Shown in pieces: positions 23,865 through 52,723 of a DNA stretch of 64,000 nucleotides. The notes beneath the pieces were generated by a model. That model saw only the letters and a list, made by a program, of their open reading frames with translations. It searched no databases and was not told the origin of the DNA. How positions within the stretch are numbered: the stretch's first letter is position 1; every line of letters begins with the position of its first letter. The translations under genes and the position numbers were made by a program. The stretch is from Candidatus Kapaibacterium sp. (GTDB taxonomy: Bacteria > Bacteroidota > Ignavibacteria > Kapaibacteriales > UBA2268). Where the stretch lies: the NCBI GenBank assembly GCA_937995785.1, contig CALKJQ010000030.1, positions 353-64,352 on the forward strand, in the 5' to 3' direction.

Positions 23865-23940
23865 GGGGTCTTAGCTCAGTTTGGTCTAGAGCGCTTCCTT
23901 GACACGGAAGAGGTCGCTGGTTCGACTCCAGTAGATCCCA
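23865..23940 (+). tRNA. tRNA-Val (anticodon GAC)
   Basis: A manual cloverleaf fold works. The acceptor is GGGGTCT/AGATCCC with one G-U pair, the D arm is GCTC/GAGC, and the anticodon stem is CTTCC/GGAAG with loop TTGACAC. The T arm is GCTGG-TTCGACT-CCAGT and the discriminator is A. It is 76 nt long and CCA is not encoded. Confidence 0.85.
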
Positions 23941-47971: not shown

Positions 47972-47999
47972 TATAAAAAAAGGTGGCTTAGCAGCCACC
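47972..47999 (-). terminator. Intrinsic terminator of the cytochrome/YeeE operon, with the stop codon in the hairpin loop
   Basis: The minus-strand RNA reads GGUGGCU-GCUA-AGCCACC followed by UUUUUUU. This is a 7-bp GC-rich stem, and the UAA stop of the 410-aa ORF spans the loop. Confidence 0.8.
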
Positions 48000-49220
48000 T
48001 AATACTCTTTTCGGCTTATCGGATTTAGAATTATCGGCCGGTTTATATTTCATTAAAATATCGGGTATAACATTCTTGGCATATAAGCGAAAATGATTTC
48101 TATCTTTTTCTGCAATTGTTTGGGGATTTTCCAATGGCTTATATTCAAGGATGTCCTTACGGAAACCGTCGATACCACCTTTGAGGATTTTTATGCGTTT
48201 GTAACCAAGTTTCATTGCCAAAATTGCCATTTTTTTCTCTGTTAATTCATCATTTGCTACAAAGATGTTTTCTCTATGCAATATTTTTAACAATTTATTA
48301 GGTTCTTTTGAAAATAAATCATCTATAGTCATTGGTGTAGATTTAGGGAGTGGCAATTTTTTTCGGTCCTCATCCGAACGGAAATCGAAAATTTGTATTC
48401 TATTGCACTCTTCGATTTTGATTAAACACAAAGCAAATTCGTCGGGGCAAATTATTCGATTAGAGATAGACCCATCCGAGCAACTGTGTTCACCGAAGGT
48501 GTTAACAACGTATTTTTCATCACCTATCAATTTCAATAAATCAGATTTGCGATCCGAAAAACCAAATGACATAATTCCCATAATTAATCCAATAACCAAA
48601 ACAGATGCAAAGTAAGGTGTTGTTTTTATCGCAGGTTGGTTGATTTTATTAACTTTATTTTCGATTATATTTGTAGCGTAGAATGCAAATAATGCAACCA
48701 CAACCATAACAAATGCAAAAACTCCTTGCGAAATACCCAAAGTTTCGAATATTTGCGGACTACCTAAATTGGCTGATTTGAATAAACCTTCGAATAGCGG
48801 ATAACCTTCGGCAAAAATTAAAACCCCAACGAAAGCACCAACAATAAAAATCATTGCATCGATTTTGCCAATTGCCGCCGCACACACGCTCGTCCCCGGA
48901 CAAAATCCTCCCAAAACAAATCCCAAACCCATTATCAAACCTCCGATAATCGCCGACCAAAGGAATGTGGGATTTACATATACTAAACTCATATCAATTA
49001 TACCGAAATGATTGAAAGCAATCACTCCAACCATTGCCACTAAACCTGCTGTGAAAAATACACGAAGAACTGTAAAATCATATCCATAGAACAAACCAAC
49101 CAATTTCTTTGATGTAGAAAATCCTGCTTGTTCCAAAATAGCACCAAAAAAGATACCTATTATCAAGGCAACTATATAATTTAAATTGGGGCTTACTATA
49201 TCGGGTACTAATGGTCCCAT
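47988..49220 (-). CDS. YeeE/YedE-family permease half fused to a C-terminal rhodanese-homology domain lacking the active-site Cys
   Basis: The membrane part carries the GGFCPGTSVC motif. The C-terminal region IQIFDFRSDEDRKK...ENIFVANDELTEKKMAILAMKLGYKRIKILKGGIDGF fits the rhodanese fold, but the CxxGxR loop is replaced by ANDELTE. Confidence 0.7.
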   Translation of the reverse strand: MGPLVPDIVSPNLNYIVALIIGIFFGAILEQAGFSTSKKLVGLFYGYDFTVLRVFFTAGLVAMVGVIAFNHFGIIDMSLVYVNPTFLWSAIIGGLIMGLGFVLGGFCPGTSVCAAAIGKIDAMIFIVGAFVGVLIFAEGYPLFEGLFKSANLGSPQIFETLGISQGVFAFVMVVVALFAFYATNIIENKVNKINQPAIKTTPYFASVLVIGLIMGIMSFGFSDRKSDLLKLIGDEKYVVNTFGEHSCSDGSISNRIICPDEFALCLIKIEECNRIQIFDFRSDEDRKKLPLPKSTPMTIDDLFSKEPNKLLKILHRENIFVANDELTEKKMAILAMKLGYKRIKILKGGIDGFRKDILEYKPLENPQTIAEKDRNHFRLYAKNVIPDILMKYKPADNSKSDKPKRVLGGC

Positions 49221-49235
49221 TTCTTTTTCTCCTTG

Positions 49236-49751
49236 TTAAATCCACATTTTTCTGAAGAAATACGCAAACATATACGCTCCTGCAAAGATTGCAAACATAG
49301 TGATTATTCCACCTGTGGACATTACCGCCATACCCGAAAGAGCCGCACCACTTGTGCAACCTCGCCCAAGTTGGGAACCTATGCCCCAAAGTATCCCTCC
49401 GATAATAGCTCCAGTAACCCTTACTTTTGTTGTTGCTCGTGGTCCCTTTTCGAATATAAGGTTTAGCCTATTAGAAGCCAACCCAGATAGGAAAGCACCA
49501 ATCAAAACGCCAACAACTTCGAAAACCAACCAGTTCATTAGTGGGTTGCCTGAATGTTCCTCGGCATACTCCTGATAGAACTTAGTGTTTTGGGTGTGGC
49601 TTGGTGCGATTGTTTGAACTGCGGCTATTGTGCCACTTTTGATTGCACCGCTGGCTCCGAGACCACGTCCAGTTATAAAAATTGTTGCTAATAGCAAAAT
49701 ACCCAATAAAACTCCTGCCAAATAGGGGTTCATATATTTAGTTTCTTCCAT
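49236..49751 (-). CDS. YeeE/YedE-family permease half (sulfur-compound transport component)
   Basis: It is a 171-aa, 4-TM protein with GRGLGASG and GRGCTSGAALSG motifs. It is adjacent to a second half-size paralogue. Confidence 0.7.
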   Translation of the reverse strand: MEETKYMNPYLAGVLLGILLLATIFITGRGLGASGAIKSGTIAAVQTIAPSHTQNTKFYQEYAEEHSGNPLMNWLVFEVVGVLIGAFLSGLASNRLNLIFEKGPRATTKVRVTGAIIGGILWGIGSQLGRGCTSGAALSGMAVMSTGGIITMFAIFAGAYMFAYFFRKMWI

Positions 49752-49763
49752 TTCATATCTCCT

Positions 49764-50438
49764 TTAATCGTATTGATTTGATAATTGTTGAGAATTATTT
49801 TCTTTCAAATTTTCGTTATCTTCTTCATCAGTTTCGATTTCTTCGTAACCCGTTAGCATTGCATTTAAATTTGTCAATACTTTCTCGCCTGTTGTCGTTA
49901 GGTAAATATGTCCTATCACAAAAGCAACCAACAATAATGCTCCCGCAGTATGAACGATAGCAATGTATTTTAAAGTTGCTATGTTAATAGATTCCACACC
50001 GTATTGGGTTGGGTATCTATAAAACATATACAATAATCCCGAAGTAACCATTACTGGAATTACTAATAGTTTTAAACCCAAGTATGCCAACTTTTGCAGT
50101 GGATTCAGTTTACTTAGGGCAGTTTTTTTAGTAGGATGAGGTTCGTTTCGGAATATACCCACGATATAATATCTAATTTGAGCCGATATAAATTCTTTAG
50201 TCGGTATATATTGCTTCCATTCGCCAGTTGCAAAATGCCAGAATATAGCCAAAACTACCAAGCTCACCAACATATAGGCAGCAATGTTATGATATATCAC
50301 TGCTTCCTCGAATCCGAAAAACGAATAGGTGCCATGAATTTCGAATCCCGTAAATCCGAGGAAAAATATCAAAATCATTTGCATCCAGTGCCAGAATCGC
50401 TCGAAACTTCTATAAATATATACTTTTTTATGTCCCAT
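49764..50438 (-). CDS. Membrane di-haem cytochrome b (Ni/Fe-hydrogenase/FdnI/PhsC-type b subunit)
   Basis: The N-terminus is RSFERFWHWMQMILIFFLGFTGFEIHG. There are four TM helices with conserved His residues (WHW, YHN, VHTAG, GHIY). Confidence 0.7.
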   Translation of the reverse strand: MGHKKVYIYRSFERFWHWMQMILIFFLGFTGFEIHGTYSFFGFEEAVIYHNIAAYMLVSLVVLAIFWHFATGEWKQYIPTKEFISAQIRYYIVGIFRNEPHPTKKTALSKLNPLQKLAYLGLKLLVIPVMVTSGLLYMFYRYPTQYGVESINIATLKYIAIVHTAGALLLVAFVIGHIYLTTTGEKVLTNLNAMLTGYEEIETDEEDNENLKENNSQQLSNQYD

Positions 50439-50449
50439 TTTTAACTCCG

Positions 50450-52009
50450 TTAAAGATGTTTTTTAAAATAAATTCTAATTATGCTATGGATAAAAACTCC
50501 AAGAATTGTCAATATAATTAGTCCAAATCCAGCATAATCAACTATTTGTGAGCGGTCTCGTCCGGGGATATAGAAGTCTGTTAGCTTTTCTAATCTCGAG
50601 TTAGTCCGTGTGTGACATTCTTTGCATTGCACAGATTCCTCTTTGGTCGAAACCATATGATTTACGGGCCAATACATCATAGTTTCGATAAAAGAAACTT
50701 GACCACTAAAGGGCAATCCAACATTTTTCATTCCTATTTCTGATGCTTTTACCCAATCGAAATCTTGCCAAAATCCACCTTCGCCTGGTTTGTCGGCATA
50801 CAATTTTGGTTGAATTATAATTTTGTTAATTGGGTCGTAAGGCTGTTTAGCGGTGTGAATTTTAACGGGAACTATTTTCGATTCGGGATCGTTGTAACTG
50901 CCGTGTAACTGATTCAATAATATTGGTTTGCTATCATCTCGAATTTTATCGCCCGAAATATAGTGACTTGAAGTGCCATTGAACCAAATATAATCTGGTT
51001 TGACGTTTCTTGCCCAAACAAATTGACCTTTAATTGACATATAACTATGATTCCCCAGAGAATCTTCTTCAGTATAGGGCTTACCATCTTTCAATTTTCC
51101 AGCTTTGCTCCAATCCCAATACATTTTTGTTGAATTAGCTTTGGCATAAACAGGAATATGGCAAGTTTGGCATGCCACTTTTAATGTGTGTTCGTTTAGT
51201 ATTTCTTTTTCGTGAGGGGTTGATGTATGGCAATCTTCGCAAAAAGCGCGGTTGATATTCATCGACGATAACGAGTAAACTTTGCCTGCAATGTTGTGGT
51301 TCTTTGTTTTATGGCAATCAACACAAGTCATATTCATTCCATCGGTACCCATATGTATATCTATGGATTTCGATGGTTCGAACATAGACATTTCCAGATC
51401 TCCGTGCTTTACGTTATTGCCACCGCCGCCATAAAAGTGGCAAACCCCACAATTTGATCTGTTTGGTTTGCCCACATTTTGAGCTACAAAATTAAAATTA
51501 ATGTCTTCTTTTGGCTTTCCTGCCATATTATCTGCTTTCGTATAGGTTTCGGTTTGGTCGTGGCAAACCATACAGTCAATATTTGTGGTATCGGTAAAAC
51601 CTTTTCCGTCGCTATCTATGCCATACCCAATATGACACTTGGCACATGCTTTTTCGTTGCTCGATGCACTTAAACAAAAATTATTAACAGCATTGCGTTT
51701 ACCAATGTAAGTGATACCCCGACCTTTGATATAATCAACTCGTTCCCAATTCCAGTGATTAGAGTTCATAACTTGATGAGATGTTAGATTGTGGCAAGTT
51801 TCGCAAGCTTTTGTTACTTGTTGTGGAGTGGTAAATGGTTGTTTGAGTATATCGAATTTTGAGTGATCCACTCGGGGTTGCTCTTTTTGCGAATAGCTTT
51901 CTTTCAAAATCAATTTATTGTTTGCAGGTTTTTCGGTTTGCCTAAGCGAACCAATGATTATGATAGAAATCAAAGCTATTATTGCTATTGCTAACGATAT
52001 CTTTCGCAT
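50450..52009 (-). CDS. Octahaem c-type cytochrome, tetrathionate-reductase (Otr)-like family
   Basis: Eight CxxCH motifs are present: CETCH, CAKCH, CMVCH, CGVCH, CVDCH, CEDCH, CQTCH and CKECH. It has an N-terminal signal anchor, an HWNWE motif after haem 1, and a predicted C-terminal TM helix (FGLIILTILGVFIHSII). Confidence 0.75.
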   Translation of the reverse strand: MRKISLAIAIIALISIIIIGSLRQTEKPANNKLILKESYSQKEQPRVDHSKFDILKQPFTTPQQVTKACETCHNLTSHQVMNSNHWNWERVDYIKGRGITYIGKRNAVNNFCLSASSNEKACAKCHIGYGIDSDGKGFTDTTNIDCMVCHDQTETYTKADNMAGKPKEDINFNFVAQNVGKPNRSNCGVCHFYGGGGNNVKHGDLEMSMFEPSKSIDIHMGTDGMNMTCVDCHKTKNHNIAGKVYSLSSMNINRAFCEDCHTSTPHEKEILNEHTLKVACQTCHIPVYAKANSTKMYWDWSKAGKLKDGKPYTEEDSLGNHSYMSIKGQFVWARNVKPDYIWFNGTSSHYISGDKIRDDSKPILLNQLHGSYNDPESKIVPVKIHTAKQPYDPINKIIIQPKLYADKPGEGGFWQDFDWVKASEIGMKNVGLPFSGQVSFIETMMYWPVNHMVSTKEESVQCKECHTRTNSRLEKLTDFYIPGRDRSQIVDYAGFGLIILTILGVFIHSIIRIYFKKHL

Positions 52010-52067
52010 TGTCTGTCTTTATATTTAATTCAACAATCATTATTTTTAAAATAATTTATATACTAAA

Positions 52068-52511
52068 TTATTGTTGTTGTTCGGTCCAATTTCCCAAAAC
52101 TTTAATTAATGTTTTGAGTGAGCTTTGGATTACTTTAAGTTCTTCGTCGCCAACATTTTCGAGTAATTCTTGGTGTATGTCGATGTAATTTTTGTGTAAA
52201 TTATCGATAAATAGCACTGCTTTTGCTTGAAGTCGCACAATAACGTTTCTTTTATCTTTTTCGTCGGGCAATCGCAATACTAACTTTTTATCCTCTAATG
52301 ATGTGAGAATATGGGTTATCCGTCCAGGCGTCAACTTAAGTTCTGCAACTAAATCGCTCACTCGGCGGACATTTGTGCCATCGAAAAGTTTTAGCATTTT
52401 AAGTTCAGTTGGTGATAAATTAAAACTTGCGGCAAATTTTTCTTCTTTCAAAACGCATAATCGCGTTAATTCGCAAATCAATTCAGCAGTACTTTGAATA
52501 TCGTTATTCAT
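52068..52511 (-). CDS. MarR-family transcriptional regulator
   Basis: It is a 147-aa winged-helix protein (LSPTELKMLKLF...VSDLVAELKLTPGRITHILTSLEDKKLV.R..DEKDKRNV). It heads the cytochrome operon. Confidence 0.8.
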   Translation of the reverse strand: MNNDIQSTAELICELTRLCVLKEEKFAASFNLSPTELKMLKLFDGTNVRRVSDLVAELKLTPGRITHILTSLEDKKLVLRLPDEKDKRNVIVRLQAKAVLFIDNLHKNYIDIHQELLENVGDEELKVIQSSLKTLIKVLGNWTEQQQ

Positions 52512-52723
52512 TATCTATCCCTTTGTTTATTTATAAAAAATAAATTGATTTTTTACAAAATTACAAAAATATTTTATTCTATAAAAAAAATAGTTAAAAT
52601 ATGAACAATATTTAATTTTTATGATTATTTTTTTTAATACAATTCAAGATGTAATAATAAGATTGCATAATATTGATTAATTTATTGCTAATTTTACATT
52701 TTTCAAAATTGAAGTATCAAAAT

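Follow-up and report, generated by a model that had tools for sequence, protein, structure and literature searches.

A membrane-bound Otr-type octahaem cytochrome in a conserved cassette with a split YeeE-type channel and a cysteine-ended rhodanese-fold domain

What is the task of an octahaem cytochrome c of the octahaem tetrathionate reductase (OTR) type when its gene lies in one operon with those of a YeeE-like transport protein? The question is raised by a stretch of 64,000 nucleotides from Candidatus Kapaibacterium sp. (GenBank assembly GCA_937995785.1, contig CALKJQ010000030.1, positions 353 to 64,352), called the window throughout. According to open reading frame (ORF) calls, it carries an operon of five minus-strand genes encoding a MarR regulator, an octahaem cytochrome c, a cytochrome b and two half-size YeeE/YedE proteins. 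OTR was reportedly crystallised in 2004. Its physiological role is unsettled; the candidate substrates put forward are nitrite, hydroxylamine, sulfite, thiosulfate and sulfur (PMC12949373). The initial annotation of the operon, made from the sequence alone, had suggested a reductase-plus-uptake module for a sulfur or selenium oxyanion. We describe here the last four genes as a cassette conserved well beyond this genome, whose last product ends in a domain of predicted rhodanese fold that has lost the catalytic cysteine and carries a Gly-Gly-Cys (GGC) C terminus. This context, in which a cytochrome b, a split channel and a cysteine-ended arm accompany the cytochrome, argues for a sulfur rather than a nitrogen substrate. 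The reading that we favour, and to which we would give about an even chance of being right, is that of a periplasmic sulfur reductase that draws its electrons from quinol and works with a tethered cysteine carrier and a split channel of the YeeE type.

To define the cassette, one genome per GTDB species was scanned. Relatives of the cytochrome were found in at least 595 genomes from several phyla, and the 80 most similar loci were analysed. Each of the 74 loci long enough for the comparison has the genes in the order cytochrome c, cytochrome b, PmpA-like, PmpB-like, on the same strand and with overlaps or very short gaps; the lone apparent exception (L064) was an artefact of ORF calling. The closest relative, 81% identical, has the same five genes as the window, and Chloroherpeton thalassium and a Thermoanaerobaculaceae metagenome-assembled genome (MAG) share this core with minor differences. 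Among the hosts are Ignavibacteria/Melioribacteraceae, Kapabacteria, many Bacteroidota, Acidobacteriota, Pirellulaceae (Planctomycetota), LCP-89, Chthonomonadia and Chloroherpeton, so that the cassette spans at least five phyla. The flanking genes vary between loci, which suggests that the four genes act as one unit. The initial annotation had made its proposal depend on co-occurrence in other genomes, and such co-occurrence is what the comparison revealed. It had also known of no described system that joins Otr to YeeE/YedE transport; our search of the literature for Otr with YeeE, Pmp or DUF395, outside which most subscription journals lay, found no such description either.

The most distinctive part of the cassette is the C-terminal extension of the 410-residue PmpB-like protein. 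The AlphaFold2 (AF2) model contains a confident alpha/beta domain at residues 250–395 (predicted local distance difference test, pLDDT, of about 80), and all its Foldseek matches are single-domain rhodaneses, with template modelling (TM) scores of up to 0.74. A profile of the domain family matched rhodaneses of the PDB with E-values down to 5e-17, including Sud from Wolinella succinogenes (1QXN, E = 3e-6), and a stand-alone relative of the domain scored 51 bits against the rhodanese family, well over the cut-off. By model and profile comparison, the extension is thus predicted to have a rhodanese fold, as the initial annotation had read it. The catalytic cysteine that would make it a sulfurtransferase is missing. 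The active-site loop of the window domain reads IFVANDELTEKK, and the catalytic position is occupied by Ala, Ser, Thr or Gly in 22 of 22 aligned family members and in the 74 genomic homologues. Since no cysteine stands at this position, the sequences identify a rhodanese-homology domain rather than an active sulfurtransferase of the usual kind.

The only conserved cysteine of the domain family is instead the C-terminal residue. The terminal Gly-Gly-Cys is kept in 97% of the 74 genomic homologues and is invariant in an alignment of 30 sequences. An exhaustive, profile-free search with the domain alone over 1.8 billion representatives returned about 76 clusters at 50% identity, and almost all full-length representatives end in GGC, GGCG or GGCGx (e.g. 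GGCGV), two ending in EGC. The linker between domain and GGC is basic and ranges from about 25 to 70 residues across the family, a variability that fits a flexible tether. We refer to these proteins as Rhd-GGC; they apparently form an unrecognised small protein family defined by a rhodanese fold, the absence of the catalytic cysteine and a GGC-COOH end. No description of a GGC-ended rhodanese was found in the limited literature that could be searched. The component families themselves are known; for the four-gene Otr cassette, the periplasmic side of the domain, its lost catalytic cysteine and its GGC-COOH end, that literature likewise yielded no description.

Two kinds of unusual members were also observed. 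The PmpB-like gene is truncated, without a GGC end, in L057 (10696–11502) and L062 (10764–11912), which may reflect a frameshift, a sequencing error or decay of the module. Among the representatives, the 261-residue protein P0382 joins a MerR-like helix-turn-helix, one membrane helix and an Rhd-GGC domain; it could have arisen by deletion or misassembly, or it could be a one-component regulator in the membrane with Rhd-GGC as its periplasmic sensor.

On which side of the membrane does the domain lie? Three independent lines of evidence bear on this point. First, the crystal structure of YeeE has its N terminus outside, and its N-terminal half (H1–H6) also ends outside (PMC7449682). The AF2 model of the 410-residue protein adds two helices (residues 165–190 and 202–220), separated by a basic cytoplasmic loop, which should return the chain to the periplasm. 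Secondly, the predicted inside loops of the 74 homologues contain on average 6.6 Lys and Arg residues, against 0.56 for the outside loops. Thirdly, where the domain has a gene of its own (L048, L055 and many representatives), it is preceded by a short positive N-region and a single hydrophobic helix, as expected for a signal anchor, and the Chloroherpeton homologue begins with two helices around a basic loop. Together, these features strongly suggest that the rhodanese-fold domain and its C-terminal cysteine face the periplasm. A domain so placed would share the compartment of the octahaem cytochrome and could not be the cytoplasmic TusA/TsuB-like partner assumed previously, a role for which it would also lack the catalytic cysteine.

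Analysis of the octahaem cytochrome revealed a full-length match to TIGR04315 (positions 1–440 of 440; 579.8 bits, cut-off 375) and a 432-bit match of residues 53–472 to the structure of OTR from Shewanella oneidensis (1SP3). Its eight CxxCH motifs (CETCH, CAKCH, CMVCH, CGVCH, CVDCH, CEDCH, CQTCH and CKECH) have Cys and His residues that are invariant in 77 homologues, while no CxxCK motif was seen by eye in the sequence. The segment GKKN...NNFC of 1SP3, with Lys56 and Cys64, aligns with GKRN...NNFC in the window, and the corresponding Lys104 and Cys112 are invariant in the 77 homologues. We take Lys56 of 1SP3 to be the ligand of the active-site haem (haem 2) and Cys64 to be a neighbouring active-site cysteine. 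Membership of the HAO, MccA or NrfA families was ruled out, the best matches outside Otr reaching 24–36 bits. By these sequence criteria the protein is assigned to the Otr family, and both the eight haem motifs and the Otr assignment made initially were confirmed.

The window cytochrome nevertheless differs from its characterised relative. OTR of Shewanella (SO_4144, 1SP3), which shares the TIGR04315 family, the eight CxxCH motifs and the Lys/Cys pair, is a soluble protein of about 460 residues whose gene follows those of a small cytochrome c and a DUF3373 protein, or stands alone. Window-type proteins have 519–527 residues and end in a transmembrane helix (window 50474–50551), and their genes are always followed by those of the cytochrome b, PmpA and PmpB-Rhd-GGC; the window protein itself starts with a signal/anchor. 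In the C-terminal helix, which is absent from Shewanella OTR, His508 is invariant (77 of 77 homologues); Arg512 is invariant in an alignment of 19 sequences and reaches a conservation of at least 95% among the 77. The missing helix and the other gene context of the Shewanella type identify, on sequence grounds, the window protein as a distinct membrane-bound Otr subtype. His508 and Arg512 might form part of a haem b or quinol site in common with the cytochrome b. As to the short type, otr follows the genes of a small monohaem cytochrome c and of a DUF3373 protein of 566–601 residues in L084, L086 and L088 (Shewanella, Marinobacter and a MAG), apparently a conserved set of three genes. No soxYZ genes were found beside short-type otr in five genomes checked; the link between otr and soxYZ comes from PMC11237559 only, where otr adjoins soxY/soxZ variants in lucinid symbionts.

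The cytochrome b scored 90.7 bits against PF01292 (Ni_hydr_CYTB; cut-off 30.1). Its best NCBIfam match was PhsC, at 101 bits below the cut-off of 204, and FdnI reached 51 bits against 116; the sequence thus points to a PF01292 family member, not to an equivalog of PhsC, FdnI or HyaC. The initial description of a PhsC/FdnI-type protein stands at the family level, PhsC being the nearest model. Seven His residues are invariant in 74 sequences, and four of them (His17, His50, His163 and His177) appear, by analogy, to occupy the positions expected for two haems b. Three invariant His residues are left beyond these four. A pairing of Otr with a cytochrome b561 has been mentioned for one Ignavibacteriae MAG (PMC7509429).

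The two YeeE/YedE paralogues cover complementary halves of the Sulf_transp profile (PF04143), half A matching the C-terminal half (79.8 bits, profile positions 175–309) and half B the N-terminal half (57.3 bits, positions 4–189), in agreement with the initial view of two half-size paralogues. Profile hidden Markov model searches left the MarR, Otr, Ni_hydr_CYTB and Sulf_transp assignments standing. The loop cysteines Cys132 of half A and Cys107 of half B are invariant in alignments of genomic homologues, the cysteines equivalent to Cys91 and Cys293 of YeeE/TsuA are conserved, and the PmpA/PmpB arrangement is known as that of split YeeE proteins (PMC11582611). By analogy, we infer that the two proteins form a heterodimeric channel of the PmpA/PmpB type. 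In contrast to YeeE/TsuA with TsuB, the PmpB-like half has two extra helices and a periplasmic domain, and the system has no cytoplasmic TusA-like partner: no TusA-like gene was found in the cassette or its flanks (ORF list and flank annotation). Membership of the TsuA/TsuB or YedE/YedF equivalogs was ruled out by this absence and by scores far below the cut-offs (43 bits against 400 for TsuA, 27–31 bits against 200–350 for the YedE/selenium models).

Comparison of related loci revealed that the channel and Rhd-GGC module is not specific to Otr but also accompanies molybdoenzymes of the Psr/Phs type. Directly adjoining the Otr cassette in a Draconibacterium locus (L048, 1185–7465) are genes for a PsrA/PhsA-like molybdoenzyme, an iron–sulfur (FeS) subunit, NrfD, PmpA, PmpB and two signal-anchored Rhd-GGC proteins. 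In an Ignavibacteriales locus (L026, 12170–17520), a cluster that likewise adjoins the cassette consists of a PsrA/PhsA-like molybdoenzyme, FeS subunit, NrfD, PmpA and PmpB and stops there; it is preceded by a MerR-like regulator of the type also found upstream of Otr cassettes. Earlier work briefly remarks on the co-occurrence of Phs/Psr, PmpAB and a sulfurtransferase in Ca. Electryonea, Caldithrix abyssi and Ca. Lernaella (PMC9324843; PMC5317091). In such PhsABC/PsrABC clusters, periplasmic quinol-linked sulfur reductases are followed by PmpA, PmpB and rhodanese-like genes, PmpB is sometimes fused to a rhodanese domain, and PhsC is the protein that the window cytochrome b most resembles. Their catalytic unit is a molybdenum bis(pyranopterin guanine dinucleotide) enzyme with FeS subunit and NrfD or PhsC, whereas that of the window is an octahaem cytochrome c with a dihaem cytochrome b. 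The remark on Phs clusters in PMC9324843 does not mention the periplasmic orientation, the lost catalytic cysteine or the GGC end. The Rhd-GGC family thus accompanies two unrelated kinds of periplasmic sulfur reductase.

Three known systems help to interpret the arm. Sud is a soluble protein with a canonical active-site-loop cysteine and carries polysulfide sulfur to the respiratory reductase Psr. The window domain shares its rhodanese fold and, by prediction, its periplasmic location but has no loop cysteine, its conserved cysteine being C-terminal, and is tethered to the membrane. MccSep of Geobacter sulfurreducens is presumably encoded side by side with ExtH. According to PMC13510729, MccSep is, like the window enzyme in our reading, a multihaem cytochrome c reducing a sulfane-sulfur substrate, and ExtH, a rhodanese-like lipoprotein, appears in the reference list of that paper. 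MccSep belongs to another cytochrome family, with five haems, a Cys-ligated active haem and a selenocysteine, and has neither a YeeE-type channel nor a GGC-ended domain. The third system is SoxYZ, which is periplasmic, exposes a Gly-Gly-Cys at a flexible C-terminal tip (GGCGG in SoxY), is associated with a YeeE-type membrane protein and neighbours otr in some symbionts; some Rhd-GGC members end in GGCG or GGCGV. A hand-over of sulfane sulfur from SoxYZ to the YeeE-like SoxT1A has been proposed (PMC11582611). The fold is nevertheless rhodanese in the window and immunoglobulin-like in SoxY, the window arm is covalently joined to a channel subunit, the enzyme is octahaem rather than SoxXA, SoxB or SoxCD, and no soxZ-like gene was found in the cassette of the window and related loci. 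By analogy, the resemblance to SoxY appears to be functional and not one of family membership.

Based on these comparisons, the quinol-linked sulfur reductase would operate as follows. A thiol-bearing MarR would repress a self-contained operon encoding a membrane-bound Otr complex and a periplasmic sulfur-handling module. The cytochrome b would take electrons from menaquinol and pass them to the octahaem subunit, docked to it by the C-terminal helix in the way that FdnH and the hydrogenase small subunit are docked by theirs. The terminal cysteine would capture S–S-bonded sulfur species in the periplasm, as do the GGCGG arm of SoxY and Sud: tetrathionate would yield a Cys-S-thiosulfonate on the arm, polysulfide or elemental sulfur (S0) a Cys-persulfide. 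The arm would then offer this adduct to the Lys-ligated active-site haem beside Cys112, where the octahaem enzyme would cleave it reductively with quinol electrons delivered by the cytochrome b. The small sulfur anion released, or the arm-bound sulfane sulfur, would enter the cell through the PmpAB channel. Finally, reactive sulfur would modify Cys13 and Cys19 of MarR and lift repression at two palindromic operators.

Only inferred here are which substrate the enzyme takes, which way electrons flow, what the arm does, which species is transported and what MarR senses. The more specific proposition that this membrane-bound Otr subtype acts on a cysteine-bound adduct (persulfide or S-thiosulfonate) on the GGC arm, and not on free anions, is tentative, and we consider it somewhat unlikely. 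If true, the cassette would mirror the Sox carrier system in the reductive direction, driven by quinol, and would couple periplasmic sulfur redox chemistry directly to the transfer of sulfur across the membrane; the same arm and channel module would serve Psr/Phs-type molybdoenzymes, and the physiological substrate class of OTR would be given. Since metagenome surveys label such genes 'tetrathionate reductase', the part that these genes play in the sulfur cycle of sediments may be misjudged.

Several points weigh against the favoured reading. The mechanism for the window Otr subtype was built from sequence, model and analogy, the contact between arm and cytochrome is conjecture, and the direction of electrons through a dihaem cytochrome b is not readable from sequence. 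The window protein scores 20.8 bits against the rhodanese family PF00581, just under the cut-off of 22.2, the fold being supported by the AF2 model and by relatives that score well over it; the membrane half of the AF2 model has a low confidence (pLDDT of about 40–50), probably because the PmpA partner is absent from it. The figure of 74 of 74 loci covers the closest clade only, not the whole Otr family, whose short-type members are without the module. In vitro, Shewanella OTR prefers nitrite and hydroxylamine, and deletion of otr in Shewanella sp. ANA-3 delta-ttr leaves tetrathionate metabolism unchanged (PMC12949373).

In the model of the initial annotation, taken literally, quinol electrons pass through the cytochrome b to Otr, Otr reduces free tetrathionate, and the resulting thiosulfate is imported by the YeeE-like pair with the rhodanese domain as TusA/TsuB-like partner. 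OTR reduces tetrathionate in vitro, as papers citing Mowat 2004 relate, in sediment microcosms tetrathionate induced the otr gene of an Acidobacteriota MAG 36-fold (PMC8528874), YeeE/TsuA imports thiosulfate (PMC7449682), and the cassette is conserved. Tetrathionate as the substrate is nonetheless unproven: Otr is dispensable for tetrathionate respiration in Shewanella (PMC12949373), and the Shewanella-type gene has another context. The partner function is contradicted by a rhodanese domain that lacks the catalytic cysteine and is predicted to be periplasmic, by the missing TusA-like gene and by the low TsuA score. The model further gives no role to the conserved GGC end, and the same module goes with Psr/Phs-type enzymes, whose product is not thiosulfate. 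Taken as a whole, we regard this model as unlikely.

FdnI-type cytochromes b can also work in the quinone-reducing direction. The octahaem enzyme might run oxidatively and attach thiosulfate, sulfide or sulfite to the cysteine of the arm, in the manner of SoxXA acting on SoxY; electrons would pass to quinone through the dihaem cytochrome b in an FdnI-type loop, and sulfane sulfur bound to the arm would enter the cell through PmpAB. The GGC end resembling SoxY, the place of otr beside soxYZ variants in sulfur-oxidising symbionts (PMC11237559), the occurrence of the cassette in the phototrophic sulfide oxidiser Chloroherpeton thalassium and the existing model of import from SoxYZ to SoxT (PMC11582611) would fit such a direction. 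Most hosts, however, appear from their record titles and the habits of their taxa to be anaerobic or facultative heterotrophs (e.g. Ignavibacteria, Prolixibacteraceae and Thermoanaerobaculia), no genes of cytoplasmic sulfur oxidation (sHdr, Dsr) were found among the clustered flanks, the sister module goes with reductases of the Psr/Phs type, and the thiosulfate-oxidase activity of OTR is reported to be very low (PMC12949373). An oxidative function appears distinctly improbable.

A nitrogen-oxide substrate seems still less probable, and indeed very unlikely. The complex would then be a quinol:nitrite or quinol:hydroxylamine reductase, and the Pmp and rhodanese genes would be passengers or serve haem or thiol homeostasis. 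Papers citing Atkinson 2007 give nitrite and hydroxylamine as the best in-vitro substrates of OTR, and the report on the Ignavibacteriae MAG allows for nitrite reduction (PMC7509429), but the sulfur-trafficking module occurs in every one of the 74 loci, its genes always in the same order and either overlapping or separated by very short gaps; it stands beside sulfur-type molybdoenzymes as well and comes with regulators of thiol- or sulfur-sensing types. A selenium or tellurium function, in which the enzyme would reduce selenite, the arm cysteine bind selenium (selenotrisulfide-type) and the YedE-like pair import it, is to be rated just as low: YedE is linked to selenium use, the halves give weak YedE matches, MccSep reduces both selenite and polysulfide (PMC13510729), and ExtH is linked to selenite uptake through the porin ExtI in a paper cited there, but those matches fall far below the cut-offs, no YedF/TusA-like gene lies next to the cassette, neither selD nor other selenium-utilisation genes were among the recurrent flank neighbours (no search being aimed at such genes), and the partner module goes with Psr/Phs-type enzymes.

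The features of the operon are collected in the table below.

Table 1. Features of the operon and its control regions in the window (positions count from the first nucleotide of the window).
Feature	Position	Strand	Basis and remarks
marR	52068–52511	minus	147 aa; PF01047, 30.6 bits (cut-off 24.6)
octahaem cytochrome c, Otr family	50450–52009	minus	519 aa; TIGR04315 and 1SP3 match
cytochrome b, PhsC/FdnI-type	49764–50438	minus	224 aa; PF01292
YeeE-half A, PmpA-like	49236–49751	minus	171 aa; PF04143, C-terminal half of profile
YeeE-half B with C-terminal extension	47988–49220	minus	410 aa
PmpB-like part of the 410-aa protein	48741–49220	minus	PF04143, 57.3 bits, profile positions 4–189; conservation
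two extra transmembrane helices of the 410-aa protein (predicted)	48561–48728	minus	AF2 helices, loop charge, topology of the YeeE N-terminal half
rhodanese-fold domain (predicted), no catalytic Cys	48141–48473	minus	AF2, Foldseek, alignments; predicted periplasmic
C-terminal Gly-Gly-Cys, residues 408–410	47991–47999	minus	conservation; proposed carrier thiol
intrinsic terminator (stem-loop and T7 run)	47974–48000	minus	hairpin search and folding
probable operator 1, perfect 6-5-6 palindrome ATTTAT-TTTTT-ATAAAT	52529–52545	minus	18 nt upstream of the marR ATG
probable operator 2, perfect 6-5-6 palindrome AATTTA-GTATA-TAAATT	52053–52069	minus	overlaps the marR stop, upstream of the cytochrome gene
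TTTTTGTAATTTTGTAAA containing TAATTTTG, possible promoter element	52552–52569	minus	just upstream of operator 1; conserved in the closest relative, L001

ORF calls reproduced exactly the five co-directional genes and the intergenic gaps of 58, 11, 12 and 15 nt (in operon order) given initially. The strong intrinsic terminator was likewise recovered, as a stem-loop at 47981–48000 of 8 bp, five of them G-C, followed by a run of seven T (hairpin energy −14.4 kcal/mol, z = −2.7). The codons of the terminal GGC form the 5' arm of its stem, and the TAA stop lies inside the loop; the conserved end of the protein and the terminator therefore use the same bases. The flanking genes are unrelated to the operon: its upstream neighbours are a divergent PfkB kinase and a CBM9 protein, its downstream neighbours a protein without a Pfam match and a CNNM/CBS protein. 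The only Rfam match in the whole window is a tRNA gene at 23865–23940; riboswitches and leaders were not found near the operon.

How the cassette is regulated differs between loci. The window MarR carries an N-terminal pair, Cys13-x5-Cys19, with 94% conservation of Cys13 and 100% of Cys19 among 16 aligned proteins (that of the window and 15 cassette-linked ones), suggesting that it would sense its signal via thiols. A MarR gene lies upstream of the cassette in 16 loci; a MerR-family gene whose product has a Cys-rich C-terminal region takes its place in 19, and in L003 the regulator is an ArsR protein with BigR as its second-best NCBIfam match. MarR, to which the initial annotation had assigned the control, is thus one of three regulator types (MarR, MerR-like and ArsR/BigR-like) that replace each other among the loci. 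Taken together, the sequences of these regulators point to sulfur sensing. The MerR-like protein (e.g. L041, 7448–7909, and 18 other loci) has about 150 residues and is encoded directly upstream of the cytochrome gene; its Cys-rich region follows the pattern C..C..C..C..C..CxxC, and its best NCBIfam match, HspR, lies well below the cut-off.

The repeat upstream of marR had first been put forward as an operator with the reservation that it might be chance, and shuffling alone indeed gave no significance (P of about 0.08, with a spacer of 12% G+C). Comparison with relatives was more informative. The palindrome ATTTTA-N5-TAAAAT occurs 13 times in the 1.18 Mb of fetched loci, 10 of these 13 directly upstream of marR, and relatives also have a second, degenerate copy of the TTTTAG..CTAAAA type at the same marR–otr junction where operator 2 lies in the window. 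It is this comparison, and not the shuffle statistics, that leads us to regard both window palindromes as probable MarR operators. A sigma-70 promoter scan gave scores no better than those of shuffled sequence. We take TAnnTTTG to be the −7 promoter element of the Bacteroidota type (Fibrobacterota–Chlorobiota–Bacteroidota, FCB, group), and TAATTTTG within TTTTTGTAATTTTGTAAA is a possible element of this kind.

The interval between marR and the cytochrome gene holds a third palindrome, ATTATTTT-A-AAAATAAT (8-1-8), at 52039–52055. It has part of its length in common with operator 2, and its half-site is similar to the TTATTTTA arm in the operator of relatives.

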